Source: Nanobdellota archaeon (GTDB taxonomy: Archaea; Nanobdellota; Nanobdellia; Pacearchaeales; GW2011-AR1). From it: a stretch of DNA of 64,000 nucleotides. The stretch is from positions 96,001 through 160,000 of the forward strand of contig JBBSXC010000003.1 in NCBI GenBank assembly GCA_038045945.1. Direction: 5' to 3'. A program made the translations under genes and the position numbers. Below are positions 3,161-48,272 of this stretch, piece after piece. The notes beneath the pieces are model-generated. The model had not been told where the DNA came from. It worked only from the letters and a program-made list of their open reading frames with translations, and searched no databases. How positions within the stretch are numbered: position 1 is the stretch's first letter; every line of letters starts with the position of its first letter.

Positions 3161-4374
3161 GATCTTAAAGCCTCCACAGGACTCATCCTAGAAGCCTGTA
3201 TTGATGGAACTATACCAGCAAGTATACCAATAACAAAGGCGAAAAGAGCAGAAAAAATAAGCAAAGGAAAGGATATTTTAACACCAAGATTAAGTCCTGG
3301 CAAAAGAGCCCTAACAGCAGCTGAAGCAGTAATAGCGATTAATAAACCAACAATAGCACCGACAACACCTCCAACAAAACCCATAAGTCCTGATTCAATA
3401 ACAAAAATCTTTATTATATCAGAATTCTTAGCACCAATAGCTTTCATAACACCAATCTCCCGCTTACGCTCAAGAACAGAAGTATATAAAGTGTTAGAAA
3501 TACCAATACCACCAATAAGCAAAGAAATAGTAGCAATACCAACAATAACCAAGTTGATCATGTTAAGAATAGTATTAATAGAACTTAGTGCTTGTTCAGG
3601 AGTCTGAACAGAAAAATCTTCCTTACCCTCTTCCAGCCCCCTATCATCTCTCATAGCATTCCTAATATTATCAGAAACAACTTTGGTCTTATCTTTATCA
3701 CTAACCTGAACAGCAATCAAGTCATGCTCATCACCAAGACTTAATAGTTCCCTCATATCGCTCTCACTCATAAGAACAACAGAATTAACAGTAAAAGTAC
3801 TAGCTCTCTTTAATACACCAACAACATCAAACATTTTACCAGAAATATTAACAGATTTACCAACACTTATCTTTTTATCAAACTTATCATAAGCAATAAA
3901 GTCATTACCCAAAACCACTTTACCACGATCATTACCAGATATTAGCCTACCCTGCTCAACAATAATAGTAAAACTATCATAAATAAAATCTTCACCGCGC
4001 TTATCCTTAGGAATAGAAGCAAGATAAGAAAAAGTCCCAATCTCATTATACTCAAACTTTACAGTCCTAATAACCCTAGGAACAACCAAAGAAACATCAG
4101 AAACACTCCTAATAACCTGCACATCATGATCATTAAGCTTCTTAATAACAGTAGAACCCGGAGGACCAAAACCAGTCTCAGCATTCTGAACAACAAGCCT
4201 ATCAGGAGCAAGATCAGAAAACTGACCAGTAACAGCTAGTCGTAAACCATCACCTAAAGAAATAAGAGAAACAACAGCAGCAATACCAATCATAACACCA
4301 AGTATAGTAAGCCAAGAACGAAGACCCCTATGCTTAACAGACTTAAAAGCAAGAATAAAATAATCACCAATCAT
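3157..4374 (-). CDS. ABC transporter permease, MacB/FtsX family (paralog)
   Basis: RSWLTILGVMIGIAAVV, GISNTLYTSVLERKREIGVMKAIGA, PVEALR; 4-nt overlap with paralog. Confidence 0.92.
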   Translation of the reverse strand: MIGDYFILAFKSVKHRGLRSWLTILGVMIGIAAVVSLISLGDGLRLAVTGQFSDLAPDRLVVQNAETGFGPPGSTVIKKLNDHDVQVIRSVSDVSLVVPRVIRTVKFEYNEIGTFSYLASIPKDKRGEDFIYDSFTIIVEQGRLISGNDRGKVVLGNDFIAYDKFDKKISVGKSVNISGKMFDVVGVLKRASTFTVNSVVLMSESDMRELLSLGDEHDLIAVQVSDKDKTKVVSDNIRNAMRDDRGLEEGKEDFSVQTPEQALSSINTILNMINLVIVGIATISLLIGGIGISNTLYTSVLERKREIGVMKAIGAKNSDIIKIFVIESGLMGFVGGVVGAIVGLLIAITASAAVRALLPGLNLGVKISFPLLIFSALFAFVIGILAGIVPSIQASRMSPVEALRS

Positions 4375-4428
4375 AAAAAAGGATAATCATCAAGCCTTAA
4401 AAATCTAATCAAAAAAGAAAATAAAGCC

Positions 4429-4722
4429 TTATTCAGACTTACTAGAATCATAACGATAACCCATGTTCTTCAAATCAGACTTATAAAGTTCAGAAACACG
4501 CCTAAGATCATGACTTATAGAACCAGAATTAGCAACACTCCCATCAGGACTAACAAAAAACTTATCAACATCAGCCTTATCATGAACAATCTTTTCTAAA
4601 CCACTAAAAAGAAAAATAATAGAACCAACACCAAAAGCTAAAAGAACAGATTTAGCAATAGAAGAGATAGCAAGATCATAAACCTCACTAAAACCATAAG
4701 AGTCGCCACACTTATTTACCAT
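4429..4722 (-). CDS. Hypothetical membrane protein
   Basis: ORF with one TM segment and upstream TATA. Confidence 0.6.
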   Translation of the reverse strand: MVNKCGDSYGFSEVYDLAISSIAKSVLLAFGVGSIIFLFSGLEKIVHDKADVDKFFVSPDGSVANSGSISHDLRRVSELYKSDLKNMGYRYDSSKSE

Positions 4723-4796
4723 AAAACAAAAGCTATTTCAAAGTATTTAAAACTTACTACTTGTAACTACTAAAGAATAACACATATTAATTGATT

Positions 4797-5375
4797 TTAC
4801 ATTCCTTTCTTCTTTTTTAACAAATCAATAATTTTTGGTGAAACAGAGGGCTTTCCATCAATAAGAGGATAACGATAAGGGAGAATTATTGATTCTACAT
4901 CATTAATCCTAACTTCCAACCTATCGCGAAATTTTAGTTCACCAAAAACTTTTTTGTTATTAACAATTTTGTTAACAACCCACACCGCATTATCGGTTGA
5001 TAATTGTTTATCACCAATATTACGAATATCAGCATCTGGCAAAAACTGCGTTAGTTCCTTATTAGTACGCTTCTTAGGAGGATAATCACCTAAGATGCCG
5101 CCAAAAACAAAAAATTTGAATTTTGCGGAATCATCAGGACTCAAGAGTTGATCAGCTTGAGGATCAAGAACACAAGAATAATTAAGACTCATCTTACTAA
5201 CAGAATCCTTAAACACTTTACCAAACTTAGAAATTTTAGACCTATCAGTTTTTGACTTAACATTTGTTAACCACAAATTATCCTTTCCAACAATTGAAGA
5301 AATTCTCTCATACTCAATAAGAACCCACTTAGAAACTCGCGGTTCCAAATGCTCAATAACAAATACGGCACTCAT
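4797..5375 (-). CDS. SPOUT-class SAM-dependent methyltransferase, Sfm1/DUF431-like
   Basis: VIEHLE..WVLIEY, LDP, FVFGGILGDYPP, QLSTDNAV, LPYRY motifs. Confidence 0.85.
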   Translation of the reverse strand: MSAVFVIEHLEPRVSKWVLIEYERISSIVGKDNLWLTNVKSKTDRSKISKFGKVFKDSVSKMSLNYSCVLDPQADQLLSPDDSAKFKFFVFGGILGDYPPKKRTNKELTQFLPDADIRNIGDKQLSTDNAVWVVNKIVNNKKVFGELKFRDRLEVRINDVESIILPYRYPLIDGKPSVSPKIIDLLKKKKGM

Positions 5376-5623
5376 CTTTTAGCCCTTATACTAGCTAAGT
5401 AATCACTCTTACTAACACCATTCTTAGGAACAACGTAAACTTTTGAACCTATCTGCAATCTATCACCAGGCATAACAAAACTCCTTATCTCTCCATCAGG
5501 ACCACCAATGATTAATCCACCACTATGAGAAGAATAATTTAGTCCGCCAGCAATCTCACCATTAAGAGTCGTAACCAGGCCTATCTTACCTTCAAGATCA
5601 TTAACAGTCAATACTGAAACCAT
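5372..5623 (-). CDS. Hypothetical protein
   Basis: ORF overlapping methyltransferase start by 4 nt; upstream TATA. Confidence 0.6.
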   Translation of the reverse strand: MVSVLTVNDLEGKIGLVTTLNGEIAGGLNYSSHSGGLIIGGPDGEIRSFVMPGDRLQIGSKVYVVPKNGVSKSDYLASIRAKR

Positions 5624-5669
5624 AAAAATAACAACAAAAACACTATTTTTATACTTTATTAATAATAAG

Positions 5670-5819
5670 TTACTTTCTTTTCTTCTTAGAACCAGACTTC
5701 TTCCTTAAAGACTTAATAACTTTTTTAACAGTTTTCTTTTTACCTTTAAACAATTTCATAAACTTCTTAATTTTAGAATGCCTAGTCTTTTTCTTATTAC
5801 GCTTAACTCTTTTTGCCAT
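5670..5819 (-). CDS. 49-aa very basic (Lys/Arg-rich) peptide
   Basis: MAKRVKRNKKKTRHSKIKK...KKKRK; 27 of 49 residues K/R, no acidic residue; ATG at 5819. Confidence 0.65.
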   Translation of the reverse strand: MAKRVKRNKKKTRHSKIKKFMKLFKGKKKTVKKVIKSLRKKSGSKKKRK

Positions 5820-5839
5820 TGTTCTTTTTTTGATTTTAA

Positions 5840-6070
5840 AGAGCTGACGATCTGGACTCAGTGAGGAGTGCCTCAACCGGTTCGGATTAATGTGCTTAAC
5901 CTCTCCGCCAGTTATTAAAGGTTATCTCCGTCGTGCTTGTGATGTGCTTAATGAGTACAGGTTTCATAAAGCGAGTTATAGTCCAGTCGCTAAATTAATT
6001 GTTAGCACCCAACATAGGCTTATACAAGTACATCCTTTCCAGGACAACTGATTTATCCCCAGTCAGCTCT
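5840..6070 (-). ncRNA. Putative structured non-coding RNA of unrecognised family (~230 nt)
   Basis: 9-bp terminal helix AGAGCTGAC/GTCAGCTCT, several internal hairpins with G-U pairs favouring the minus strand, TATAAATA 30 nt upstream, no credible ORF. Confidence 0.65.
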
Positions 6071-6092
6071 AAAATAATTCAAGACTAAGAAG

Positions 6093-6100
6093 TATTTATA
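6093..6100 (-). promoter_or_regulatory. TATA box for the putative ncRNA
   Basis: TATAAATA on minus strand; first T is 30 nt from the terminal helix, the same spacing as TATA-to-ATG in leaderless genes here. Confidence 0.6.
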
Positions 6101-6177
6101 GTTGACTTACCACTAAAGAATTACTAGAAAAAGGGCTTTTTGACAAAACTTAAAAACCTGCGATTAGTAAATAATTC

Positions 6178-7404
6178 ATGAGAAGACACCTAACACCAGT
6201 AGGAACAGGAGTTAGCCTAGGATCAATGATCGTACCTAACGAATTCTTAGCAGGACTAGAAGTAGTTGACTTCAAAAAAGGAGCACTAAACCCCGGTGAA
6301 ATAAGCACTCTAACAGTTGAAATAATGCAAAAAGCAAGCGGGGGCGACATGAGCAAAGACGGAAAAGGAGAACTAAAGGGAGATGGAATAGGAATAAAAT
6401 CAAGAAGATGGCTAAGACCCGTAGGAAAAAAAGAAGAACTAAAAGATTTAGCAATTAAAGCAGCAATTAAAGCAGTAGAAAGCACAGGAATGGACCCTAA
6501 AGAATACTTATCAGAATTAAAAGTAATAATGTCAGCCCACGAAAGCAGGATACCAAAATACCCAACACTAGCACAAAGAGTACAAGAAGGACTAACAGAA
6601 CATTATGGAATAAAACTAAACATTGATTACGCACAAAACACATCTTTTGCTTGTGCAGGATTCCCAATAACACTACTAACAGCAAACGCATTAGTAAGAG
6701 CAGGAGAAGTAAACGGTAACGTATTAGTAGTTGGAGCAGAAGACGTTAAAGGCCTGGTAAGAAAAACAAAGGAAGGAAGATACGACGTGAGCATTTACTT
6801 ATTCGGAGTTGGAGCAGCAGCGATGGCATCAAAAACAACAACAGAAGAACACGGAGCACAAACACCAGGATACGTCAAAAGCATGCCCTACATGTCAGAA
6901 GTAGAAAGAAAGGCAAGAATGAGCAATAGTGCAGCATTATATGACGATGTTGACACACACATAACAATGGCTGATGGAGCATTAGTAAAATCAGGAGCAA
7001 TAGACTACATGAGAAGATCAATTATTGATCAAATAAAGAAACACAACCCTAAAGGAGAGAGAAGAGTAGTTGTTTGCCCACACCAAGCTAACGGAAGAAT
7101 CAACGGACCACTAGAAAGAGATTTAAGAAGAGAAGGAATACTAAGAATTACAGACTTATACTACGCTTCCGGACTAGAAGATAATGGGAACATATCAGTA
7201 CCAGCATGCCTAACAGGATTTGACTCTATGGTAAGAGGACAAGACTACCAAAGAAGAGCAGTTAGAGAAGGACAAATACTGCCTAACGACCTAGTAATAA
7301 TAACAGCAGTAGGAGCAGGGATGAGCGGATCAGCAGCATCAATAATAATGCCGCCAAAAGCATTAGCTTACATGCCAGAAATGGTAAGAAGACAATACTC
7401 ATAA
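6178..7404 (+). CDS. fabH: 3-oxoacyl-ACP synthase III (FabH)-like condensing enzyme, divergent
   Basis: GIKSRR, FACAGF (Cys), VLVVGAE, FGVGAAA, HQANGRI (His), GNIS (Asn), AVGAGM. Confidence 0.8.
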   Translation: MRRHLTPVGTGVSLGSMIVPNEFLAGLEVVDFKKGALNPGEISTLTVEIMQKASGGDMSKDGKGELKGDGIGIKSRRWLRPVGKKEELKDLAIKAAIKAVESTGMDPKEYLSELKVIMSAHESRIPKYPTLAQRVQEGLTEHYGIKLNIDYAQNTSFACAGFPITLLTANALVRAGEVNGNVLVVGAEDVKGLVRKTKEGRYDVSIYLFGVGAAAMASKTTTEEHGAQTPGYVKSMPYMSEVERKARMSNSAALYDDVDTHITMADGALVKSGAIDYMRRSIIDQIKKHNPKGERRVVVCPHQANGRINGPLERDLRREGILRITDLYYASGLEDNGNISVPACLTGFDSMVRGQDYQRRAVREGQILPNDLVIITAVGAGMSGSAASIIMPPKALAYMPEMVRRQYS

Positions 7405-7455
7405 AAAAACATTTTTGAGTAAGTTTATTAAGTAAATCTAAGTTTTAAAATAATT

Positions 7456-8142
7456 ATGAAAGAGGACAAAACTGATAAGCGCTGGCTTTACGCAGGAATA
7501 ATATTCTTGTTATTATTCGTACTAACAACTACCAGTGTAACTAAAGGATTATTTTCGGAAATTGATAAATTAACAATAGAAAGAGTATCACTATACCACA
7601 CAAACTTTTTAACATCACTATTCATAATTTATCATTATGCATTCAAAACATCAACATTAGTAATAATAACACTGTTAATGTCAGCAACATTTTATTTACT
7701 TAAAAAGAAGAAAGAAGCAATAACTTTTGCTGGGATAATGATAATTGATGCATTAGCATTATACTTGACAAAAACATTCACTAATATAATAAGACCACTA
7801 GGAAGCATCGTTACAGAATCAACATTATCATTCCCTAGCGGTCACACTACAAGCGCAATAGTATTCATAGGATTATCAACCTACATGTCAATAAAGTACC
7901 TAAGAGGAGAATGGTCTAAAACAAGAATACCATTAGTCTTAGAAATGATAGCACTAAGCATATTCGTAGCTTACTCAAGATTATACCTAGGAATACACTG
8001 GTTTAGCGACATAATAGGAGGAACATTCCTAGGACTCACAATACTATCAATAGGAATATTTATACTAGAAGAAGAAAACATAGGAAAAAAGTTATCACAA
8101 AAAACAAATACGCTTAGAAAGAAAATAATAAGCCATCAATAA
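7456..8142 (+). CDS. PAP2-family membrane phosphatase
   Basis: K...RP, SFPSGH, SRLYLGIHWFSD motifs; multiple TMs. Confidence 0.9.
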   Translation: MKEDKTDKRWLYAGIIFLLLFVLTTTSVTKGLFSEIDKLTIERVSLYHTNFLTSLFIIYHYAFKTSTLVIITLLMSATFYLLKKKKEAITFAGIMIIDALALYLTKTFTNIIRPLGSIVTESTLSFPSGHTTSAIVFIGLSTYMSIKYLRGEWSKTRIPLVLEMIALSIFVAYSRLYLGIHWFSDIIGGTFLGLTILSIGIFILEEENIGKKLSQKTNTLRKKIISHQ

Positions 8143-8499
8143 CCTTAAGGGGAAACTAGTATTTTTCTTAAAAATCATTTCTCTAGGAAAAAAATATGAA
8201 GCTTTTTGCCCATCAATAAGCTTATGAGAAGGATGATTACGACCAATATTCACCCTAAAAACATAAAACCTTTTAAAAAATAAAGAAAAACAAAAAAATA
8301 GGTTAGGAGTTGATGAAAGCTTAAGCTTATACTCCTCTAAAAGTTCCCTCTTCAAAGCAATAAGAGGTTTCTCTCCTTTTCTTAAATGACCGCCAAAAAG
8401 ACCCCACTTAGAAGGAAAAGTATCATCATCCTTAGAACGAAGCTGAAAAAGACACTTATGGTCACTCCTTTCTATAATAACACCAGCATAATCAGACAT
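8095..8499 (-). CDS. NUDIX hydrolase
   Basis: QLR..., WGLFGGH..GE.P..ALKRELLEE Nudix box. Confidence 0.85.
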   Translation of the reverse strand: MSDYAGVIIERSDHKCLFQLRSKDDDTFPSKWGLFGGHLRKGEKPLIALKRELLEEYKLKLSSTPNLFFCFSLFFKRFYVFRVNIGRNHPSHKLIDGQKASYFFPREMIFKKNTSFPLRLLMAYYFLSKRICFL

Positions 8500-8560
8500 A
8501 GAAATAAAACATTAATATTAGTATAATAAACCTTTTATACCAAATTTTTGTTAATAATGA

Positions 8561-8962
8561 ATGAAAACAGAATGGACACATGGAGGAAGAAGGGAAGTAA
8601 GTAATAAACCAAAAAAAGGGTATGATACCCCACAGTCTCTAGAAGGATGGGACTATGTTCTAGCCAGAGACGGAGAAACAGTACTATGCGCTTATAACCC
8701 CCAAATGCAAGAATTAAGAGTTAATAATGACACAGACAACGATTTAGGAGAAATAATTGCGGACTTAGATGAAAGACCAGGATGCGCAGACTTTTTAGTA
8801 TCATTATTAAGTTTAAGAAGACCAGAACCAACTTTTGAAAGAGAATTCGGAGTAACAATCGATGAAAGACTATACTCTAGAGACGGAAGACTAGTAAAAG
8901 CAGGAGTACTAAAACCAGAACAAAAACAATTAGTAAGAAGTGGAGGAATAACAACTGATTAA
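8561..8962 (+). CDS. Hypothetical protein
   Basis: ORF with upstream TATA and strand-typical codon use. Confidence 0.6.
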   Translation: MKTEWTHGGRREVSNKPKKGYDTPQSLEGWDYVLARDGETVLCAYNPQMQELRVNNDTDNDLGEIIADLDERPGCADFLVSLLSLRRPEPTFEREFGVTIDERLYSRDGRLVKAGVLKPEQKQLVRSGGITTD

Positions 8963-8964
8963 CA

Positions 8965-9441
8965 ATGAAGATAATAAGTCCAGCATTCACACATGGAGAA
9001 GAAATGCCAACAAAGTACACAGTAGAAGGAGAAAACATTTCACCACCACTAATAATAAGCGAAGTACCGCAAGGAGCAGCATCATTACTACTAATAGTTT
9101 ATGACCCTGATATACCAAAATACGTAAAAGAAAGGTTTAGCATAAAAGAATGGACTCATTGGGTATTATTCAATATTGACCCAAAAACTATGGAAATACC
9201 CGAAGGTATAGAACCACACTCACATCTTGCTAATCAAGGAATGAACACTAACGGAAAAGCAGGATGGGGAGGACCAAACCCGCCAGACGGAAGACACAGA
9301 TACGCATTTAGACTATACGCACTAAACAAAAAAATATTGATGAATGACGGAGCAACAAGAGAAGGAATAGAAAAAGCAATGGCCAGCAGCGTAATAGCAC
9401 AAACAGAAATGATGGGAACTTATGAAAAACGCAATAAGTAA
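8965..9441 (+). CDS. YbhB/YbcL (PEBP/Raf kinase inhibitor-like) protein
   Basis: NISPPL, DPD, WTHWVLFNI, GPNPPDG.HRY.F.LYAL. Confidence 0.92.
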   Translation: MKIISPAFTHGEEMPTKYTVEGENISPPLIISEVPQGAASLLLIVYDPDIPKYVKERFSIKEWTHWVLFNIDPKTMEIPEGIEPHSHLANQGMNTNGKAGWGGPNPPDGRHRYAFRLYALNKKILMNDGATREGIEKAMASSVIAQTEMMGTYEKRNK

Positions 9442-9526
9442 GACGTTTTTCAACTATAAAAATTCAAAGACAAGAATTTTTACACTAAGACAAGAAAAAC
9501 AAATAAAGTTATTAAATTCTTAAAAA

Positions 9527-10012
9527 TTACTTAACTTTTACACCGTCAATTGTAACGCCACCAATAATAGCGCCGTTTGATGGAACAGGCTCACAATGAT
9601 TCTTTACAGGTTGAGTTATAAGCATTAATATGATAGCTCTCCTTCTTTGCTCTTCCATTTCTTCAGCAGTTAAAACACGAGGCTCATAATTAGAAACTGG
9701 AGCGTTAAGAGCACCGCCGATTTTTATTCCACCAATTTGAGCATGTGATGAACCATCAAGATAAAGAGAACCCCTAATGTTTTCGTCATAGGTATTAACT
9801 GGTCTACCACCATTAGAGAAAATAGAACCAGGAACGTAGTCTTTACCAAGAACCACTTTACCAGAATAATTATTTAGGCCACTAACAACAGGTCTTTGGC
9901 TAACAGGAGAATCTTTTTTAACATAATCAGAATTAGCACTTACGCAAGAAGCTAACAATAAAGGTGCAACTAAAATTTTACTAACTAAACCAAAATTTGT
10001 ATCCCTAACCAT
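9527..10012 (-). CDS. Hypothetical lipoprotein-like protein
   Basis: LLLASC lipobox-like signal; start at ATG 10012. Confidence 0.55.
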   Translation of the reverse strand: MVRDTNFGLVSKILVAPLLLASCVSANSDYVKKDSPVSQRPVVSGLNNYSGKVVLGKDYVPGSIFSNGGRPVNTYDENIRGSLYLDGSSHAQIGGIKIGGALNAPVSNYEPRVLTAEEMEEQRRRAIILMLITQPVKNHCEPVPSNGAIIGGVTIDGVKVK

Positions 10013-10107
10013 AAAAAAAGGCACATTTTATCATACTTAAACCTTTCTAATTATAAAACAACAAATCTACTATCAAGCTTTAAAAACATGAATAAACTAA
10101 AAAAATC

Positions 10108-10857
10108 ATGGGGCTGATAAAACTATCATCAATTCTAATAATAACTTTAGTAATGGTTTCTTTAATAATAAGCCTAAACATATCATTAGGGGTTAAACAG
10201 TTATTATACCCACAACTATACGAAAAAGCAATAGAAAAAATAAACATAAACAAACTATTAGGAGAAGGCGGAACAAACATCACTTATAACGTAAGCGGAC
10301 TCTTAACACAAATAATAGAAAAATCATTAAGTTACGTAAGAGGAGAGTCAGAAAGAGAAAACTTATACTTAGAAATAGAAAAAAATATTACTCCAGAAGG
10401 AAGACTACAACAAAAAATTAATGTTTTAGACTTATTCGACAAAGAAGGAACATTAACAAACGCGAAAACTTACGTAAACTATTACAATAAAGGGATATTA
10501 TTAATAGAAGGACTAATATTATTCTTAACAATAATAATCTTACTTATTAACGGAAAAAACTTTAATTCATCAATAAGGTGGGTAGGAATAGCGCTAATTA
10601 TTGCCGGGATAATAGTAATAATTATTTCAAGCATAATAGGAAACCTCTTATACACACAAATATCTACGAGTTTCCCGATAATTCAGCCAGGAATAACACA
10701 ATTAATAACTCCAATATTCCACGCAATAAAAATTAACGGAATAATAACACTAATAATAGGATTCTTAATGCTGATAACACCAATATTTTTACCTAACAAA
10801 AAAGAGAAAGAAGAACCAGAAGAGAAAAAAAGTGTTAAGGTAACAAAAACTAAATAA
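10108..10857 (+). CDS. Hypothetical multi-pass membrane protein
   Basis: One N-terminal and three C-terminal hydrophobic segments. Confidence 0.7.
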   Translation: MGLIKLSSILIITLVMVSLIISLNISLGVKQLLYPQLYEKAIEKININKLLGEGGTNITYNVSGLLTQIIEKSLSYVRGESERENLYLEIEKNITPEGRLQQKINVLDLFDKEGTLTNAKTYVNYYNKGILLIEGLILFLTIIILLINGKNFNSSIRWVGIALIIAGIIVIIISSIIGNLLYTQISTSFPIIQPGITQLITPIFHAIKINGIITLIIGFLMLITPIFLPNKKEKEEPEEKKSVKVTKTK

Positions 10858-11188
10858 CTAACTTATTAGTTATCCTGCGATTAACTTCCTTATCCAAAGT
10901 ACCTATAAAGAATCCTTCCTGCGACTTGGCAATTAATGACTCATTTGTAGGACCATGACCCATATCAACCCTCTTAAACCTTTTATGGTCACCGAATAAT
11001 TCTAAAGCTTTTTTAGCTAAATCATTATCTCCAACACCAGACTTAACACTGTTAGCAATATCTTTTAATTCATTAAGAATAATCTTAGAAACCCTTATTT
11101 TGTAACCTTTAGACTCTATACTAGTAATGAATGAGTCACCATTTTTCATATGATTCATGATGAATCCAGTATCAATTATTGCTTGCAT
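10850..11188 (-). CDS. PIN-domain protein (Fcf1/Utp24-like), possibly degenerate
   Basis: AIIDTGF, ILNEL, GTLDKE PIN-like motifs. Confidence 0.65.
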   Translation of the reverse strand: MQAIIDTGFIMNHMKNGDSFITSIESKGYKIRVSKIILNELKDIANSVKSGVGDNDLAKKALELFGDHKRFKRVDMGHGPTNESLIAKSQEGFFIGTLDKEVNRRITNKLVI

Positions 11189-11222
11189 AAAACTATTAAA
11201 GCTTAACAGGTTTATAATACTA

Positions 11223-11732
11223 ATGGTTAAAGAAAAAAAGGTGTTGAGAAAGATACTAAAAGTACCATACGATAAACAAAAAACTGATTATACTTGCGGG
11301 CCAGCAAGCCTAAAAATGATTTTAGAATTTTTCGGAATAAAAAAACCAGAAATAATATTAGCACACCAAGCACACACAAAGAAAAAAACAGGAACAACTC
11401 ATGAGCAAATGATTAACCTAGTAAGAAGAGAAGGATTATACTGCTATGTACATAACCAGTCAAACATTAACACAATAAAACACTTCATAACTGCAGGATT
11501 ACCAGTAATAATAAGCTTCAAAAATCCCGAGGATAAAGAAGGACATTACGCTGTTGCAATAGGTTACAATAAAGGAATAATAATCTTAAATGATCCTTGG
11601 AACGGAAAAAACTTCAAAATAGATGACAAAGTACTAAAAAAATTTTGGGTTAGCGAAAACAAAGGAAAAAAGAGCATAATAGTAATATCAAAAAAACCAA
11701 TAATCAGAGGAAAACAGTACAACCCATTATAA
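11223..11732 (+). CDS. Peptidase C39-like cysteine peptidase
   Basis: Q.TDYTCGPASLKM, GHYAV, LNDP catalytic motifs; start at ATG 11223. Confidence 0.88.
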   Translation: MVKEKKVLRKILKVPYDKQKTDYTCGPASLKMILEFFGIKKPEIILAHQAHTKKKTGTTHEQMINLVRREGLYCYVHNQSNINTIKHFITAGLPVIISFKNPEDKEGHYAVAIGYNKGIIILNDPWNGKNFKIDDKVLKKFWVSENKGKKSIIVISKKPIIRGKQYNPL

Positions 11733-11745
11733 TAACAGATAATAA

Positions 11746-12051
11746 TTAACCGGTTCTAGAATTATTATAACTATCAGCTATTCTTTCAAGTATAATCCTA
11801 AAGTTTCTTCTGTCATACCAATCAAGAAGAAATTCTTCACCCTTACGCTTAACATAATCATGAACATTACGACGATCAGTACCAAGCTCTTTAGCAATAC
11901 GAGAAGAGCTATAACCAAGACTTATCATTTCATCTTTACGAGTATTATCAATGTGACCATACCACGGAAGATTCCTAAAATTTCTTACAGTACGTAAATC
12001 AACCTTCCCATCAACACGAATCCTGTAAGCCTTTGCACCAAAACTTACCAT
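11746..12051 (-). CDS. Hypothetical protein with HTH-like segment
   Basis: LGYSSSRIAKELGTDRRNVHDYV resembles an HTH. Confidence 0.55.
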   Translation of the reverse strand: MVSFGAKAYRIRVDGKVDLRTVRNFRNLPWYGHIDNTRKDEMISLGYSSSRIAKELGTDRRNVHDYVKRKGEEFLLDWYDRRNFRIILERIADSYNNSRTG

Positions 12052-12145
12052 AAAAAAGATGATTATTAAAACTTATTAAACTTTTTGATAATAGAAAAAG
12101 TACAATACATTAAAGCTTTTATAGGCCTAGTAATTAACAAAAAAG

Positions 12146-13228
12146 ATGTCAGGTCACACACCAAAAAAAGTAAGAATATATGTTGATGCAATTGGAGGAG
12201 ACACAATAACTGGGAAGGACGGAAAAGAACAAAAAATTGAAGAAAGAGTAGTTAGGGCATCATTGGAATTCTTAGATGAACACAAAGAGGCAAGAATCAT
12301 CCTAGGAGGAGACAGAAAACTTCTTGAAGGAATGGTTGATGGAAGCGACAGAATAGAAGTCGTTGATGGTAGAGCAACACCCTATGGGATTAGTGCCATA
12401 CGTCGAGAAAGAAAGGGCACAGCACTCTATAAAGGTCTTGAAATGTTAGAAGCAGGCGATTGTGACGGATTATACACATCAGGAAACACTCAAGCAGTAG
12501 CGGTTTATGTTGCTACAACAATTGGAAGGTTTAAAGGGATTAAATCAATGCCCCTAGTAGCAAGACTACCGAAAAAAGGAGAAAAACCAGTATACCTCTT
12601 GGATGTTGGCGGAGGAACAGATAATCTGGATGTTAACGGATTTAGAGACTTAGCATTATTAGCACATGCTTATTGTAAGGCTGTGGCAAAAGTAGACAAT
12701 CCAAGATTAGGCTTATTATCAATAGGTAAAGAACCTGAAAAAGGCGGACCAACAATAACAGAAGTAGATAAGAAGTTAAGAGAAACCAGATGTATAAACT
12801 ATAGCGGTTTAGTAGAACCTAAAGACTGGATGATGAAAGAATATGAAGCTGTAATATCCAACGGGTTTGTTGGCAACATCGGGATAAAAACAATCGGAGG
12901 AACGGTTATTCTTGCAAAGAGCGAAATAAAAGAAGCATTAAACAAATATCCAGTTAGAAAATTTTTAGCAAAAGCAATATTAGCGCCAGCGGCAGCAATG
13001 ATCTTAGGGCCAGTGTTTTATCCTCTAAAAGAAAAATATAACCCATCAAGAGCTAATGGTGCAGCATTATTAGTGCCCGGAGTCTTCATTAAGGGTCATG
13101 GGGAATCAGACGTTGAAGGAATACGCCGAGGACTTGGAGCAGTATCAGAACACGTAAATAAAGAAGTACCAAGAAGAATGAAAGAAGAACTAAAAATGGT
13201 AAGAGAACAATTAACAATAACAGAATAA
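12146..13228 (+). CDS. plsX: Phosphate acyltransferase PlsX, divergent
   Basis: VDAIGGD, SGNT, LLDVGG, LLSIGKEPEKG, GFVGNIGIKT, GAALL, KGHG.S match PlsX motifs. Confidence 0.85.
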   Translation: MSGHTPKKVRIYVDAIGGDTITGKDGKEQKIEERVVRASLEFLDEHKEARIILGGDRKLLEGMVDGSDRIEVVDGRATPYGISAIRRERKGTALYKGLEMLEAGDCDGLYTSGNTQAVAVYVATTIGRFKGIKSMPLVARLPKKGEKPVYLLDVGGGTDNLDVNGFRDLALLAHAYCKAVAKVDNPRLGLLSIGKEPEKGGPTITEVDKKLRETRCINYSGLVEPKDWMMKEYEAVISNGFVGNIGIKTIGGTVILAKSEIKEALNKYPVRKFLAKAILAPAAAMILGPVFYPLKEKYNPSRANGAALLVPGVFIKGHGESDVEGIRRGLGAVSEHVNKEVPRRMKEELKMVREQLTITE

Positions 13229-13229
13229 A

Positions 13230-14441
13230 CTATTTTTTTGGGTAAAAATTAACATAAACGTAATCATCAGTTAACAGATTAGCTAATTCTTGCGGAGTTC
13301 TAATAGGGGCAGTTTTAAGATCTATATCAGTTCTTTGAATAATATTACCCCATGTTTTGGCCATAACGCTCAAATACTTACCCACCTCATCAGCGTTAAG
13401 ACCCTTTAAAGCTCTATAACCCTTATCAGTAACACCATATTCACAAACACCCCTAGTAGAAACAACCCTGAAAGATAATTTACCCTCAGGATACTTCCTT
13501 TTAAACCTAAGAGAACGACCGACTATAATTCTTAAGTCACTGACTGATGAAACAGAAAAAACATAATTATCCCTATCTTTAACATGAAGATCAGCCTTCT
13601 TCTTAACATCCCCTAATTCTTCAGCAGTTAACTGGGGATGACCAGAATCTTTTCTGTTATTAACAACTTGTTCAACGATTTGTTCAGCACTAATATTAAG
13701 AGAGAAGTGATGATGATACTGAACAGCTTCTAAACCACTAGAAGCGGCCTTACTTATTAAGAAACCTTCTTCCATAAAAACATTAGACCATCTAATAACA
13801 CGATTATCATACTTTTCCCCATTAACAAGAGTTTCTAACCCATCCCTCAATTCTTTCTTAGGCACATTAATTTTTTCTTTATGAAAAACAAACCTATTAT
13901 CTTCACGAACACCATTCTCATAGGTTTTACCGACTTTAGGAAAATGAACCCAAGCTTCCTCAAAATTAGAGGTTTCACAAAGATCCATCATTTGTTTCTC
14001 TATATCATTTTGAGAACCAGTAAAGACTTCTCTATAAGAATTATCAGTATTAACTGACAATTTATCAACTTCTACTAAAACTCTAGGGTCAACATATACT
14101 GGAGTTATAAGAATAGTATACTTTCCTAGACCTTCATCAACCATATCAACATCATACTTCCCAACACCATATTCTTCATCAATAGATTTCCTTAAATCAG
14201 AAAGTTTTGATTCTGGATCAACATTACTAACAAACCTTTTAGGCAAAAAATCATTAATAGGAAGAACCTCTTTTTGAACAACCCCAGAATTATCCAAACC
14301 CACACCTAAAGAATTATCATAAGCCTTACTAAGACTACGCGGAGGACTAGGCTTAGGAATATCAGGAGACTGGCAAGAAGCAGAAGCTAAAAGAAAAGGA
14401 ATAATTGACAACTTACCCACTAAACCTTTACTAAAAACCAT
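13230..14441 (-). CDS. Hypothetical lipoprotein-like protein
   Basis: LLASASC signal; EEAW...YHHH...SVSD. Confidence 0.6.
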   Translation of the reverse strand: MVFSKGLVGKLSIIPFLLASASCQSPDIPKPSPPRSLSKAYDNSLGVGLDNSGVVQKEVLPINDFLPKRFVSNVDPESKLSDLRKSIDEEYGVGKYDVDMVDEGLGKYTILITPVYVDPRVLVEVDKLSVNTDNSYREVFTGSQNDIEKQMMDLCETSNFEEAWVHFPKVGKTYENGVREDNRFVFHKEKINVPKKELRDGLETLVNGEKYDNRVIRWSNVFMEEGFLISKAASSGLEAVQYHHHFSLNISAEQIVEQVVNNRKDSGHPQLTAEELGDVKKKADLHVKDRDNYVFSVSSVSDLRIIVGRSLRFKRKYPEGKLSFRVVSTRGVCEYGVTDKGYRALKGLNADEVGKYLSVMAKTWGNIIQRTDIDLKTAPIRTPQELANLLTDDYVYVNFYPKK

Positions 14442-14471
14442 GAGAAAGCCTTAGAAAAAGGGGTATATAAA

Positions 14472-14741
14472 CTAACTTCTTCTTCCTGGCTCTTCCTTAA
14501 CTATATACTCTTTGAGGGTTATTTTTCTACCATAAACTTCCTTACCATTCATCTGCGATATTGCCTTATCAGCTGCTTCTTTAGAAGAAAAAGTAACAAA
14601 ACCAAACTCTTTAGGCCTATGAGTTTTCTCATTCATAACTAGACTAGCAGTTACTGGTTTTAATGAAGAAAATAGTTGTTTAAACTCCTTATCAGTATAA
14701 CTAAGGGGTAAATTACCAACAAAAACTTTAACATTAACCAT
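14472..14741 (-). CDS. RRM RNA-binding protein
   Basis: RNP2 VFVGNL, RNP1 KEFGFVTF. Confidence 0.9.
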   Translation of the reverse strand: MVNVKVFVGNLPLSYTDKEFKQLFSSLKPVTASLVMNEKTHRPKEFGFVTFSSKEAADKAISQMNGKEVYGRKITLKEYIVKEEPGRRS

Positions 14742-14897
14742 TAAGAATAAACAACCATCAAGAATATTTAAGCTTATCAGAACACACCAAACCCCTTTTT
14801 TTCTCCAACCTCAAAACACTCAAAAAAAATAATGAGTAAAACAAAAATTTTTTGTGCGAATAAGCTACGAATTAAAGATAGAAACTAAAAATAAATT

Positions 14898-15248
14898 TTA
14901 GTATCTTTCTCTTCTTCCGCCGCCGAATCCGCCACCACGATTACCGCCGCCGAAAGACGATCTTCTAGGACCATCAAAAGATCTTCTTGGTGGTCTATTA
15001 TCAGGGTCCATTGGCTTAGCCTCATTAACCTTGATTTCACGTCCTTCAACTTGCTTACCGTTCATTTCAGTAATAGCTTTCTGGGCTGCTTCGTCGCTTG
15101 TTAAAGTAACGAATCCGAATCCCTTAGATCTACCGCTGAATTTGTCCATGATAACCATAGCTTCTGATACTTCACCATAACTGGCGAACATTTCAGCTAG
15201 CTCTTTGTTACCGACATTGTAAGGCAAATTACCTACATATAACTTCAT
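14898..15248 (-). CDS. RRM RNA-binding protein with Gly/Arg-rich tail
   Basis: LYVGNL, RSKGFGFV, RGG-like tail; AGGAG SD before ATG 15248. Confidence 0.93.
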   Translation of the reverse strand: MKLYVGNLPYNVGNKELAEMFASYGEVSEAMVIMDKFSGRSKGFGFVTLTSDEAAQKAITEMNGKQVEGREIKVNEAKPMDPDNRPPRRSFDGPRRSSFGGGNRGGGFGGGRRERY

Positions 15249-15365
15249 GTTTTTTTTACTCCTATGATTTAATTCCGCACTCATCAACAGAATCAGCTAA
15301 CTTGTTATAATCGCAAAATGCGAACATAAATCAAACTCATCGCTTACCTGCTTACCTAGCACTAA
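15249..15365 (-). promoter_or_regulatory. Long structured 5' leader of RRM gene
   Basis: TATA (TTTTAAATA, 15394-15386) far from ATG; TGATTTA/TAAATCA helix next to SD; TCGCA/TGCGA hairpin; CTGA-N5-TTGATGA. Confidence 0.5.
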
Positions 15366-15470
15366 TAATATGACCAGAATAAGACTATTTAAAACTATGC
15401 AGTAAGGAAAGATTAGTGCACATAAGCAATTAAAAGGCTAAAAATCAAGTATTATAAACTAATAAAGAAA

Positions 15471-17696: not shown

Positions 17697-17729
17697 AATT
17701 ATTACAACAAAAAGGTAGTATAAAAATCC

Positions 17730-17743
17730 TATGTGCAAGAAAA
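17730..17743 (-). promoter_or_regulatory. TTTTCTTGCACATA element upstream of tyrS TATA box
   Basis: Exact 14-bp match to argS upstream element at identical distance from ATG. Confidence 0.7.
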
Positions 17744-21083: not shown

Positions 21084-21719
21084 TTATTTTTTGTCCAATA
21101 AAGAACGAGTTGTAAGATAACTCTTATGATAAGGAGGAGTAACCCCACCTTCAAGTAACTTATCAAGCAATAGTCTCTCACCCCTCCTAATACTAACAGC
21201 CCTAGGATTATCACCAACCTCTGTGAAAGGATCAACGAGAATAGTCAACATACCATAACGATTACCAAAAACTATATCAGTAAATAATCTATCACCAAAA
21301 ACAACTAGTCTTTTAGGTTCACAACCAAAATAATCAGTAACACCCCTAATACCAAAAGGCTTCTTCAGTTTATGCCTTATAACATTAATATCCATCAATG
21401 ATTCAATACTAACAGCCTTTTTTTGACCTCTATCGTCATTAGTTCCAGCATCATTGGACATAATAGCTAAGTTTTCTCCAAAAACTCTTTTGTAATCAAT
21501 AAAAGCCTTAGCCACATCTGGGTGTAATTCTAAACTGTAAGGATTTGTTAAAGTATTATCCTTATCAAAAACTACACCTTGAAAACCAGCATCCTTAAGA
21601 GCTGCAGGATTAATACAACCAATATCTTTTGCTAAGAAGTGAGGAATCATCATCTGAGGCCTAAAAAACCTAGCTACAGGATAATAAACAATTGCCGGAA
21701 GATTAATTGATTGAGACAT
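21084..21719 (-). CDS. HAD-IIIA phosphatase, Gep4/PGPP1 (phosphatidylglycerophosphatase)/YqeG-like
   Basis: GFQGVVFDKDNTLT.PY, SNDAG, RH..KKP, GDRLFTDIVFGN. Confidence 0.85.
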   Translation of the reverse strand: MSQSINLPAIVYYPVARFFRPQMMIPHFLAKDIGCINPAALKDAGFQGVVFDKDNTLTNPYSLELHPDVAKAFIDYKRVFGENLAIMSNDAGTNDDRGQKKAVSIESLMDINVIRHKLKKPFGIRGVTDYFGCEPKRLVVFGDRLFTDIVFGNRYGMLTILVDPFTEVGDNPRAVSIRRGERLLLDKLLEGGVTPPYHKSYLTTRSLLDKK

Positions 21720-21778
21720 AGTAGAGGGAATAAAAAACACTGTTAAAAATCTTACTGTCCTTATCTTAATTACCTTTT

Positions 21779-22249
21779 TTATATTTCATCCAGCTTCCAA
21801 GCCCCAAAAAAGTTAGGATTAGTTCTAAGGGGAGAGTAAGTACCGACAAAGCTTAGACCAGAGGGACCTAGATAAGAATAACCCTCATAGTCTACTTCTC
21901 CAAACCTATTAACGGATACGCCGTCAATACCCTCAGGAGCCTTACCACCATAAATTTTCCTAAAAGCTATCTTTCTGTTTTCCTCATCAAAAGTGCCGAC
22001 AATACCAGAGTCTCCAAAAACATCAAAACCTCTAGCGACGAATAATCCAGAAGGTAAATGACGAAAAATAGTAAAATCAAAAGTGTTAGGACCAAGAACT
22101 AAAGGCTCATTAGCTTTCCTACGATCATAATGAACCATATGCTCAGGAGTGTTAAGTGTTTGAGTATGAGCTCTGTAACCTCTAGCATAATCTGAATTAA
22201 CCTCAAAACTACCACGAAAAACCTTACCAGAAAGATCAAGAAATACCAT
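21779..22249 (-). CDS. Hypothetical protein
   Basis: ORF. Confidence 0.6.
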   Translation of the reverse strand: MVFLDLSGKVFRGSFEVNSDYARGYRAHTQTLNTPEHMVHYDRRKANEPLVLGPNTFDFTIFRHLPSGLFVARGFDVFGDSGIVGTFDEENRKIAFRKIYGGKAPEGIDGVSVNRFGEVDYEGYSYLGPSGLSFVGTYSPLRTNPNFFGAWKLDEI

Positions 22250-22252
22250 CAA

Positions 22253-22663
22253 CTAAAGACTATCCTCCAAAGTTTTCAGATCTGAACGAGAAGTAAAATG
22301 AGTTACACCAGCAGTGTAAGCGGGAAGAGAAAAAATAAGAACATTTTCCTTGCTTACATCACCTTGTAAAGCTACACCATAACCAAACGTTGCCCCAGAA
22401 GCTAAACAAAAAAAGTCACGAGCCAAAGTCAAAGAAAAATAATCATTGAAAGGCTTAGACTCAGAAGAACGAGCACTAGAAGCCTGCAGTAAAGTCGAAA
22501 AAGCCCAAGTAACCCCACCAATACTACTTATTAAAGGACTGCCAAAACCAGCTGTTAGGCCAGTAAAAGTTGAGGAAAAAATTCTAAAAGAATCCAGAAG
22601 CCTAACATGTTTTTGAGCAAGCCTCTTATTAAAACCAACACGATAATCATCTGAACCACTCAT
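22253..22663 (-). CDS. Hypothetical membrane protein
   Basis: ORF with hydrophobic segments. Confidence 0.55.
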   Translation of the reverse strand: MSGSDDYRVGFNKRLAQKHVRLLDSFRIFSSTFTGLTAGFGSPLISSIGGVTWAFSTLLQASSARSSESKPFNDYFSLTLARDFFCLASGATFGYGVALQGDVSKENVLIFSLPAYTAGVTHFTSRSDLKTLEDSL

Positions 22664-22759
22664 CAACTAATAATAAGATATTCAGCTTTAAAAATATTAT
22701 TATAACAATGAACAGTGATTTCATAACGCTTAAAAACCTTCATTACTTAATAATCATTA

Positions 22760-46445: not shown

Positions 46446-46451
46446 AAAACA

Positions 46452-47465
46452 ATGAATAAAATATCATTTTACGGATTTGGAGCGTTCAACAGTGCACTAG
46501 CACACTACTTTGACAAAGAAAAAAACTTCTCGATGAGTTGTTACGATAAAGACGAGAAAGTAAAAGAATCAATAGACAAAGAAAGAAGACACCCACACCA
46601 CTTCACAAATATGACTTATAGTAAAAAATTATCAGTAACAAATGACCTAAAAGAATTATTATTAGCCGCAGAATTCTTAATAATTGGACTACCAACACAA
46701 ATAATCAGAGAAAACCTAAAACCAATAAAAGACCTCCTAAACAAAGAAACAACAATAATCATAGTATCAAAGGGACTCGAAATAGGAACTAACAAAAGAA
46801 TTAGCGAAATAGTAAAAGAAGAATTAGGACACAGAAAAATAGCCGTTTTTGCTGGAGGAACAGTAGCATCAGACATAGCTAACAGAATACCACTAATAGC
46901 AGAAGTAGCAAGCGAGGATAAAGAAACAAGAGAAAAAGTAGCAGGACTATTCCACAGCGAATCATTAAGAATATACACTAACCCAGACGTAGTATCAGTA
47001 GAACTATCAAGCGCACTAAAAAACATAGTATCAATAGGAGCAGGAATTTGTGACGGTTTAGGATTCACTATAGGAACTAAAGCATCATTCATAACACGAG
47101 CAACCAGAGACATATACAAAATAGCCAAGGCAATGGGGGCACATGACAAAACATTCCTGCCAGGAAGCGCATCAGTGTGGGGAGACATAATACTATCGGC
47201 ATTCGGACCAACAAGAAACTACGAATTCGGAAAAAGACTATGCTCAAAAAACCCAAAAGAGGTATTAGAATTGATGAATAAAGAACACAAAACAATTGAA
47301 GGATACTGGACAGTTAAAGCAGTAAGAACAATGAGCAAAGAAAAAGGAATAGACACACCATGTATAGAACAAGTATACAAAATAGTACACGAAGAAGTAA
47401 AACCGTTAGTTGCACTAAAAGAATTATTCGAAAGAAAAAGAACAAGCATAGACTCAAACGATTAA
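46452..47465 (+). CDS. gpsA: NAD(P)H-dependent glycerol-3-phosphate dehydrogenase
   Basis: GFGAF Rossmann, SKGLE, ALKN, GD...S....RNY, EG motifs. Confidence 0.9.
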   Translation: MNKISFYGFGAFNSALAHYFDKEKNFSMSCYDKDEKVKESIDKERRHPHHFTNMTYSKKLSVTNDLKELLLAAEFLIIGLPTQIIRENLKPIKDLLNKETTIIIVSKGLEIGTNKRISEIVKEELGHRKIAVFAGGTVASDIANRIPLIAEVASEDKETREKVAGLFHSESLRIYTNPDVVSVELSSALKNIVSIGAGICDGLGFTIGTKASFITRATRDIYKIAKAMGAHDKTFLPGSASVWGDIILSAFGPTRNYEFGKRLCSKNPKEVLELMNKEHKTIEGYWTVKAVRTMSKEKGIDTPCIEQVYKIVHEEVKPLVALKELFERKRTSIDSND

Positions 47466-47471
47466 AAATAA

Positions 47472-48218
47472 TTATTTTTTAGAATAATATTTCTCGGCCC
47501 TCTTTCTTAATGAAGGCTTACCAATATCTGACCAAAAACCATCATTTTGCTCCCAAACATAAAAATCCTTCCACCAATTATGAACAGCGCTACCTAAACC
47601 CGCCTCGCCACGCTCACCCATATCTAAGAAGAAAGGAATATTAGAAGAATGGATCATGTGTACATCGAGAATAACTCTTTGCGAATCAAGACTAGTCTGC
47701 GGAGCAAAAGATTAAGAAGCACCAGTAACCTTGCCAAGATTATCAAAACGACACATACCAAAATTCATACTCCCTCCTTCATCAGCATCACAAATCTTGC
47801 CAATATCTCTAACAGGCAGAAGATTAGCACTACCCTCAGACCTATTAAGATCATAAAACCTTCTCATCATAGGAACTAAGGAAAAATCGTAGAGGTTATC
47901 ATCAGCAGCAACTAAAGCATGATTGCCAGTACCAAACTCCTTCAGAGCAGCACAATAAACAAGCAAGGGGGCCTGAGAACCACTATACTCCTTAACATCA
48001 ATAGGTAAACTAAAACTCTTCTTAGCCTCTTCATAAGCAGATTTATGTTCAGGGTTAGTATAAACAAGAACAGGAGTCGTAACCCCTAACTCTAAAAACC
48101 TGTCAAGTTGATGAGCAATAACAGGCCGGTCAGCAAACTTTACAAGTCCACGAATCTCGCCAAGTCTATCATTACCTAAAGAATCATTAGATCCAACCGC
48201 ATTAATGAAAGCTTTCAT
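47472..48218 (-). pseudogene. Sugar-phosphate nucleotidyltransferase-like gene interrupted by in-frame TAA
   Basis: MKAFINAVG...RPVIAH...ADDNLY...GAS*SFAP...GFWSDIGKP; one frame, single TAA at 47714-47712. Confidence 0.7.
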
Positions 48219-48230
48219 ATAACTGGAAAG

Positions 48231-48250
48231 TTGTACATTAGCTTTATAAA
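48231..48250 (+). promoter_or_regulatory. ileS promoter: TTGTACAT element plus TATA box
   Basis: TTGTACAT-tagc-TTTATAAA; TTG is 42 nt before ATG as for tyrS and argS. Confidence 0.65.
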
Positions 48251-48272
48251 TTCTATTGGGGGTAATAAGATT

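Follow-up and report, generated by a model that had tools for sequence, protein, structure and literature searches.

Bacterial-type acyl-lipid gene families in four separate slots of a DPANN-type archaeal chromosome

Sets of bacterial-type acyl-lipid genes that fall short of the full PlsX/PlsY/PlsC series have been described in several uncultured lineages; excerpts of PMC9385802, PMC6431249 and PMC7242380 report PlsY/PlsC without PlsX in Asgard and Marine Group (MG)-II/III archaea, and PlsY and PlsC without PlsX or acyl carrier protein (ACP) in the Nealsonbacteria of the candidate phyla radiation (CPR). In the Lokiarchaea only PlsY of the PlsXY pair is noted (2022 review, PMC9385802), and a passage of Coleman 2019 (PMC6431249) gives PlsB and PlsX as not found in Archaea. 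GpsA is already in print for Woesearchaeota and other DPANN archaea in passages of Yokobori 2016 (PMC5059525), Coleman 2019 (PMC6431249) and Castelle 2021 (PMC8204110), the last of which also describes Woesearchaeota with bacterial fatty-acid genes, a glycerol-3-phosphate (G3P) dehydrogenase among them. The window considered here is a stretch of 64,000 nucleotides from a Nanobdellota archaeon (positions 96,001 to 160,000, forward strand, of contig JBBSXC010000003.1; assembly GCA_038045945.1); it carries genes for a PlsX-like phosphate acyltransferase, a thiolase-fold enzyme resembling 3-ketoacyl-ACP synthase III (KAS III, FabH), a PAP2-family membrane phosphatase, GpsA, and a phosphatase of the PGP_phosphatase (Gep4)/YqeG family. 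It shares with the described partial sets an incomplete PlsX/Y/C series, an uncultured lineage, an unclear lipid autonomy and the lack of ACP; it differs in being their mirror image, with PlsX present and both PlsY and PlsC missing.

The five genes are tentatively read as accessory genes of a lipid-auxotrophic DPANN-type archaeon, serving the salvage or remodelling of scavenged acyl-glycerolipids; this is the reading we favour, and as a whole it falls a little short of being probable. Its evolutionary part, namely that the genes are accessory, arrived in four gains from a DPANN/CPR gene pool and make up no pathway, is held with high confidence; its functional part, in which ACP-independent enzymes would salvage or remodel scavenged acyl lipids, is weakly suggested. 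Judged from sequence, the genes do not form a PlsX/PlsY/PlsC pathway and would not make phospholipid de novo; they are isolated edges of glycerolipid metabolism. GpsA is known for DPANN archaea, and the new points are the family combination unique to this genome, which joins a PlsX-like protein with GpsA, a KAS III-like enzyme of its own and two lipid-type phosphatases, and an orphan PlsX-like clade that appears to be DPANN-specific, mostly without PlsY and ACP, with a gene neighbourhood that is conserved in one family. The literature on DPANN PlsX, DPANN FabH and the lipid divide yielded no report of a PlsX clade in archaea, supplements, which may list PlsX-like families, being outside the scope of that search. 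The question whether bacterial-type acyl lipids can be handled by archaea bears on the 'lipid divide' and on the membrane supply of ultra-small symbionts, and the genes are clonable candidates for ACP-independent acyl-phosphate chemistry.

The slots, the contig and the organism

The source genome is an assembly of 0.85 Mb (completeness 93.07%, contamination 1.06%) that encodes e-type ribosomal proteins, TBP, TFB, MCM, Cdc6, RadA and RFC, which identify it as archaeal; the label DPANN is a putative one, taken from the marker profile and the source names of the GpsA homologues and not from a phylogeny. It was compared with 60 genomes of the same order (36 of the same family; one, G001, of the same genus) and with a phylum sample of 400 high-quality genomes, 401 when the source genome itself is counted. 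By protein-level synteny the five genes (Table 1) occupy four separate species-specific slots in a backbone that is syntenic with G001. Slot 1 is missing from G001, where the structured-RNA-like element at its left border is followed by the next backbone gene after ~250 nt; at slot 2 G001 carries ~7 kb of unrelated open reading frames (ORFs), at slot 3 two unrelated ORFs, and at slot 4 its isoleucyl-tRNA synthetase (IleRS) gene overlaps the end of the methylase gene. Flanking direct repeats were looked for around slot 1 and none were found.

This arrangement bears on the initial annotation, which had described the genes as a dispersed, long-resident bacterial lipid module. All five ORFs are real, uninterrupted and correctly assigned to bacterial-type families; they are dispersed, and the first three (FabH-like, PAP2 and PlsX) are co-oriented inside 7 kb, as it had said. 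Since the plsX and fabH-like genes lie in different slots, split by backbone genes common to G001, they are not the relic of a bacterial plsX-fabH neighbourhood; nor can the set be called long-resident, given that the PlsX, GpsA and PGP_phosphatase families each occur in 0/60 genomes of the order (G001 included) and that the corresponding slots of G001 are empty or hold unrelated ORFs.

The annotation had also raised the possibility of a chimeric contig. An assembly chimera or a binning contamination, with genes from another organism, would fit a metagenome assembly and gene families of bacterial type; it is very unlikely, as the genes lie scattered among archaeal backbone genes of a 252-kb contig, and window positions 4001-15500 are covered with 0 differences and flat depth by 61,296-nt Logan contigs of two sequencing runs. 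In two further runs, short contigs reach across each of the two slot 1 junctions, all four runs being from one study that may include the source sample; two contig 'joints' with sides of only 21-22 nt were treated as chance matches from other organisms. Furthermore, the proteins are on record on two contigs, the longer of 506 kb; the codon usage of the five genes is native (percentiles 46-84 of 629 genes), the GC content at third codon positions is genome-typical, and the contamination estimate is low.

Table 1. Coordinates of the five genes, their slots and neighbouring features (window positions unless a locus is named)
Feature	Position	Strand	Details
Structured-RNA-like element, conserved	5845..6075	+	~230 nt; left border of slot 1
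Insertion slot 1	6120..8960		~2.85 kb; four genes: KAS III-like, PAP2, NUDIX, ORF133
KAS III (FabH)-like thiolase-fold enzyme	6178..7404	+	408 aa; ~90 residues longer than FabH
PAP2-family membrane phosphatase	7456..8142	+	228 aa; Pfam 54.4 bits, cut-off 27.2
NUDIX hydrolase ORF	8095..8499	-	inside slot 1; convergent with PAP2, overlapping it
ORF133, no family match	8561..8962	+	133 aa; final gene of slot 1
Variable slot 2	11746..14741		from C39 peptidase to 129-aa RRM gene; helix-turn-helix ORF, PlsX, 403-aa lipobox-like ORF, 89-aa RRM ORF
PlsX-like phosphate acyltransferase	12146..13228	+	360 aa; monocistronic, minus-strand gene on either side
Variable slot 3	21084..22666		phosphatase and two unknown ORFs, between DoxX and 110-aa ORF at 22760
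HAD-IIIA phosphatase, PGP_phosphatase (Gep4)/YqeG family	21084..21740	-	218 aa
Insertion slot 4	46446..48230		~1.8 kb; GpsA and 766 nt, between TP_methylase gene and IleRS
GpsA, NAD(P)H-dependent G3P dehydrogenase	46452..47465	+	337 aa
GpsA/KAS III-like tandem, genus g111	L076:6000-8036 (G103), L077:5677-7765 (G114)		shortened GpsA 290 aa, KAS III-like 386-387 aa

The encoded proteins and their relatives

The PlsX-like protein matches Pfam FA_synthesis (PF02504) at 118.8 bits against a cut-off of 29.1, over profile positions 2-323 of 324, and can be aligned over its full length with B. subtilis PlsX (1vi1, 111 bits); it misses the NCBIfam equivalog TIGR00182 (155.1 against 243.4). With bacterial PlsX (PF02504/TIGR00182; B. 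subtilis 1VI1 and 6A1K, E. faecalis 1U7N) it shares fold, length and the motifs DxxGGD, LLDVG, GxExxKG, GFxGN...K and K.HG; of the 46 columns with 90% or more conservation across 59 bacterial PlsX, 29 are retained, most of the strictly invariant ones among them, and 17 are altered, with G116, R134, P135, N157 and E251 altered across the whole DPANN clade, whose proteins retain the strictly invariant columns. It differs from the bacterial enzyme in its setting: the gene does not adjoin fabH, rpmF or acpP, and the protein is without an ACP, PlsY or Fak partner, six-frame searches having found no PP-binding/ACP domain, PlsY or DegV/FakB through which acyl groups would pass from acyl-ACP to PlsY. 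A Pta/Ptb-like, ATP-yielding role was considered; the genome has no acetate/butyrate kinase.

Within 5.8 billion clusters the PlsX-like protein has a single close relative, P0002, which is encoded on a 934-kb NCBI contig and shares 51% identity with it; all other relatives listed, bacterial ones included, are at most 32% identical. A search for related loci of P0002 among genome contigs confirmed no relative, and one with a single f12 protein gave back the record of that protein alone. Besides the source genome, 13/400 phylum genomes carry a PlsX-like gene, 12 of them belonging to one family (f12), where the gene occurs in 12/29 sampled genomes (the unpublished G303 and G452 counted); the nine loci that were fetched all hold true FA_synthesis domains (62-186 bits), and a sub-threshold 'PlsX' match in one order genome (G046) proved to be a PTA_PTB protein. 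The f12 genes (L056-L063, of which L060 and L061 derive from unpublished genomes; 358-484 aa) adjoin an archaeal Hel308-type helicase gene and a small diphthamide-synthesis gene fragment of 84-100 aa, which matches only the first 56 profile positions; this conserved neighbourhood suggests vertical maintenance. PlsY is found in 1/41 f12 genomes and a PP-binding domain in 2/41 (one being the unpublished G303), so that PlsX without PlsY or ACP would be the rule in these archaea and not an accident of the source genome.

In a quick maximum-likelihood tree the source protein and P0002 group together (support 100) within nine DPANN sequences (SH-aLRT 96), and this DPANN set, which includes G303 and G452, stands apart from 40 bacterial PlsX; the branches of the tree are long and its bacterial sampling leans towards the best matches of the query, which counts against the favoured reading. 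GpsA likewise groups with DPANN and Patescibacteria homologues, and the idea of direct bacterial donors is not borne out; PlsX and GpsA at least would come from a gene pool common to ultra-small archaea and Patescibacteria, not from ordinary bacteria directly.

The KAS III-like protein meets the Pfam cut-off for ACP_syn_III (PF08545; 34.5 bits against 24), falls just below that for ACP_syn_III_C (PF08541; 23.1 against 26.6), and misses the NCBIfam fabH cut-offs (NF006829, 86.2 against 249; TIGR00747, 75.2 against 292.1). In alignments with PDB structures its C159, H302 and N338 correspond to the Cys-His-Asn triad of FabH, the triad columns being invariant or near-invariant in an alignment of 62 sequences, and an HQAN motif is present. 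The AlphaFold model (pLDDT 87.6, pTM 0.91), built on 62 remote homologues, has E. coli FabH 6x7r as its best fold match (E 6.5e-26), and every one of its ten best PDB matches is a FabH structure (E 6.5e-26 to 5e-24). The thiolase fold is thus the same as in FabH/KAS III (E. coli 6X7R and 1EBL, S. aureus 1ZOW; TM scores of 0.83-0.86 relative to the target), whereas identity is ~22% and the ~90 extra residues lie in poorly modelled insertions. An exhaustive HMMER search of 1.84 billion cluster representatives returned 92 matches at E <= 1e-3, the best non-self match having 71.5 bits, and the protein is a singleton; the KAS III family as a whole is present in 49/400 phylum genomes. It further differs from FabH in that the genome has no ACP and no malonyl-CoA source was seen: for the malonyl-ACP extender route, no ACP was found in six frames, and no FabD or acetyl-CoA carboxylase domains among the scanned ORFs. 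A role as HMG-CoA synthase, or of the NphT7 type that feeds isoprenoid synthesis, was considered and set aside because no mevalonate or methylerythritol phosphate (MEP) enzyme occurs in the scanned ORFs and the fold matches are all FabH.

The PAP2 gene starts 52 nt downstream of the KAS III-like gene and is co-oriented with it. The UppP, SepP and PgpB equivalog models give the protein 30-40 bits against cut-offs of 229-261; homologues of 21-35% identity occur in 20/60 order relatives, and G001 is without one.

GpsA matches PF01210 (107.2 bits) and PF07479 (122.7 bits) and meets the cut-off of NF000940 (215.8 against 202). It has 18 cluster relatives of 44-68% identity, which, where they are named, are labelled archaeon, Nanoarchaeota archaeon or Patescibacteria; beyond these, identity falls to at most 36% (Omnitrophota, Firmicutes). 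The family is found in 84/400 phylum genomes (the unpublished G304, G391 and G416 included). As in Woesearchaeota and other DPANN, the protein is a bona fide GpsA with archaeal or Patescibacteria-labelled nearest relatives; in contrast to those, it sits in a species-specific 1.8-kb insertion in an order whose 60 other sampled genomes lack it, and, unlike the genes described in a passage of Castelle 2021 (PMC8204110), it is not beside MEP or fatty-acid genes.

The HAD phosphatase passes both family cut-offs that define Gep4 and bacterial YqeG (PF09419, 128 bits against 20.4; TIGR01668, 117.5 against 89.1). By language-model features, which are a lead only, it lies nearest to clusters of eukaryotic mitochondrial phosphatidylglycerophosphate phosphatase (0.97), with bacterial YqeG at 0.92. 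The difference from Gep4 lies in the supply of substrate; the source genome has no PgsA-type enzyme to make phosphatidylglycerophosphate, and no CDP-alcohol phosphatidyltransferase.

Missing partners and other lipid-related genes

Partner enzymes were sought by six-frame family searches of the whole assembly, each of which gave matches in named positive-control genomes, and by a Pfam scan (E <= 1e-5 to 1e-10) of 815 ORFs, 85 in the window and 730 of the 894 ORFs of at least 70 aa outside it. The other 164 (<120 aa or >1100 aa) and one ORF of 2539 aa were omitted from the scan, which small or weakly matching proteins may escape; the separate search for ACP was made in six frames. Not found in six frames were PlsY, a PlsC-type acyltransferase, ACP, CdsA and CDP-alcohol phosphatidyltransferase; GGGPS, UbiA/DGGGPS and a dehydrogenase of the glycerol-1-phosphate dehydrogenase (G1PDH) type; and DegV/FakB, an AMP-binding acyl-CoA synthetase and acetate/butyrate kinase. 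The scanned ORFs include no fatty-acid synthase (FAS) component, acetyl-CoA carboxylase, AcpS, mevalonate or MEP enzyme, acyltransferase or CDP-diacylglycerol enzyme.

Of the bacterial PlsX/PlsY/PlsC system the PlsX-like protein alone is therefore present, without PlsY, PlsC, ACP or CdsA; of the archaeal ether-lipid pathway G1PDH, GGGPS, UbiA and CdsA were all missing, no search specific to CarS having been made. With no complete pathway of either type found in the 93%-complete genome, the organism has no known route to either kind of membrane lipid. The initial annotation had noted that PlsY, PlsC, CdsA, PgsA and ACP are not in the window, and PlsY, PlsC, CdsA, CDP-alcohol transferases and ACP are missing from the whole genome too; its remark that many DPANN are without lipid synthesis agrees with the lack of G1PDH, GGGPS and UbiA. 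Its proposal of a module for making ester lipids is not supported, no acyltransferase, ACP, acyl-activating or CDP-diacylglycerol enzyme having been found and no other pathway gene having turned up in the whole-genome search. Single 'bacterial lipid genes' in metagenome-assembled genomes are no proof of ester-lipid synthesis or of a bacterial host.

What the genome does encode around lipids is a set for polyprenol-linked glycosylation (STT3/AglB, a GT4 phosphotransferase, PMT_2, GtrA and a flippase), just two isoprenoid enzymes, polyprenyl synthase and cis-prenyltransferase, and triose-phosphate isomerase (TIM) with lower glycolysis, a source of dihydroxyacetone phosphate (DHAP). The polyprenyl synthase domain (C3 ~68.8-70.3 kb) lies in an unusually long ORF of 495-507 aa, the middle part of which alone matches the profile. 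Two patatin-like phospholipases and a GDSL lipase/acylhydrolase are encoded at C1 ~109.5 kb, C3 ~199 kb and C4 ~19.4 kb; they may be tools to attack or harvest ester lipids.

Readings of the gene set and neighbouring features

According to the favoured reading, the genes would have entered the chromosome on four separate occasions, all within 41 kb that are otherwise conserved. The two patatin-like phospholipases and the GDSL lipase would free acyl groups and lysolipids, and GpsA would convert glycolytic DHAP to G3P; the PlsX-like protein, with the PlsX catalytic scaffold kept and bacterially invariant positions changed, would interconvert acyl-thioester (of the CoA type, not ACP) and acyl-phosphate. 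The KAS III-like enzyme would take an acyl group on Cys159 and hand it on in an acyl transfer or a condensation reaction; the Gep4-type phosphatase would strip the terminal phosphate from a glycerophospho-compound, and PAP2 would likewise dephosphorylate or, more probably, recycle polyprenyl diphosphate for glycosylation. Such salvage agrees with the view that CPR and DPANN organisms acquire and modify the lipids of others (Probst 2020, PMC7242380). A joint lipid role draws support from the four families PlsX, KAS III, GpsA and phosphatase, which are found together in 1/401 genomes, the source genome itself (three of them in G103 only), and whose four slots fall within 41 kb of 847 kb (random-placement simulation, p = 4e-4). 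The lipolytic enzymes, the DHAP source and the associations in f12 and g111 given below speak for it as well.

A number of observations weigh against this reading. No conserved five-gene module exists, and the five genes are not one operon, only the KAS III-like and PAP2 genes being adjacent; the PlsX-like gene co-occurs with GpsA in 1/13 and with the phosphatase family in 0/13 of its carriers among the 400 phylum genomes, and KAS III with GpsA (7/49) and the phosphatase with GpsA (8/37) do not exceed the base rate of GpsA (84/400). The count of genomes with all four families and the simulation of slot clustering are both post hoc. Accessory genes are plentiful, with about half of the ORFs being different in the source genome and its nearest genome. 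Neither an acyl acceptor enzyme nor an acyl-activating enzyme was found in the genome, and thus neither the source nor the fate of the acyl-phosphate is accounted for. PAP2 has an ordinary alternative role, a cis-prenyltransferase and AglB/STT3 being present and no other PAP2 or BacA having been seen.

These points lend themselves to a different explanation, possible though rather doubtful, in which the genes are functionally unrelated accessory genes without a common pathway: GpsA would serve the redox balance of glycerol-phosphate and DHAP or supply non-lipid G3P, PAP2 would recycle polyprenyl diphosphate for protein glycosylation, the HAD protein would be a generic YqeG-type phosphatase, and the PlsX-like and KAS III-like proteins would act on unknown small acyl compounds. 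Four separate slots, the lack of phylum-wide co-occurrence of GpsA or the phosphatase with the PlsX-like gene, and the frequency of GpsA on its own are what it would lead one to expect; the carrier-lipid cycle of glycosylation is present, every partner enzyme is missing, and a passage of Coleman 2019 (PMC6431249) indicates that archaeal G3P dehydrogenases are not confined to lipid synthesis. It has greater difficulty with the gathering, in one genome and within 41 kb, of families otherwise unseen in 60 order relatives, and with the KAS III-like and PAP2 genes being adjacent and co-oriented in one insertion. Two associations elsewhere in the phylum also speak against it: in f12, 7/8 KAS III-positive genomes are PlsX-positive as well (hypergeometric p = 0.003, the genomes being kin and not independent), and in genus g111 a tandem GpsA/KAS III-like pair stands directly behind an Lhr-type helicase gene in both sampled genomes. 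The strength that this tandem could lend to the favoured reading is limited by its GpsA and KAS III-like proteins being only 25% and 23% identical to those of the source genome.

The g111 tandem, the functional coherence of the families and the apparently intact catalytic residues would suit a working bacterial-type G3P ester phospholipid route, whose gaps would be filled by unrecognised enzymes (for instance, with G3P acylated by the KAS III-like protein) or lie in the unassembled 7% of the genome; the genome is just 93% complete and many ORFs have no family match. Such a route is nevertheless improbable, as no PlsY, PlsC, PlsB-type acyltransferase domain, ACP, CdsA, CDP-alcohol transferase, FAS, FakB or acyl-CoA synthetase was found in the six-frame and proteome scans, the second acylation and the head-group activation would each require a new enzyme, and the PlsX-bearing family f12 is likewise poor in PlsY and ACP. 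Unlikely too is an ACP- and PlsY-independent acyl-phosphate system in some DPANN archaea, in which the DPANN PlsX-like protein and a KAS III-like acyltransferase would load scavenged acyl groups onto G3P made by GpsA; if it were true, an archaeon would assemble or repair bacterial-type ester lipids through a route without a described counterpart, and in the source genome four separate gene gains would have brought the parts together. Little credence is given to the view that the genes are recently acquired, functionless passengers heading for loss. Species-specific presence, missing partner enzymes and the extreme divergence of the KAS III-like protein, which has no relative above 71.5 bits, would be in keeping with it; however, the five ORFs are full length and appear to keep catalytic residues, the modelled fold is confident and codon usage is native, and the PlsX-like protein and its 51%-identical relative have invariant residues in common, which suggests purifying selection. 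The fast loss of useless DNA that is known for reduced genomes of this kind also counts against passengers.

Several features adjoin the genes discussed above. At slot 1 the order is an SFM1-like gene, the RNA-like element, the four slot genes and a PEBP/YbhB-family gene (8965-9441, +) of the phosphatidylethanolamine-binding protein fold, a backbone gene 57% identical in G001. The RNA-like element, between a small basic ORF and the FabH-like gene, is 77% identical to its counterpart in G001, shows closing-stem complementarity and folds better than shuffled sequences (z = -2.74); no Rfam family was matched at the gathering threshold or at E up to 1, and the element is a candidate for an unannotated structured RNA. 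Two minus-strand ORFs, one abutting the PlsX-like gene (13230-14441) and one at 9527-10024, have no family match; by eye their signal peptides end in lipobox-like sequences (…LLASASC… and …LLLASC…), and they are possible lipoproteins. Small RRM_1 proteins are encoded at 14472-14741 and 14898-15287 (-; 78-81 bits), the larger being 81% identical in G001. The synthetases IleRS (48231-51098), which directly adjoins the GpsA insertion, class Ib aminoacyl-tRNA synthetase (16692-17738) and ArgRS (53822-55567) show 38%, 33% and 43% identity to the proteins encoded at the matching positions of G001, and the genes neighbouring them are 61-86% identical; the low identity of the synthetases hints at a xenologous replacement in one of the two lineages.

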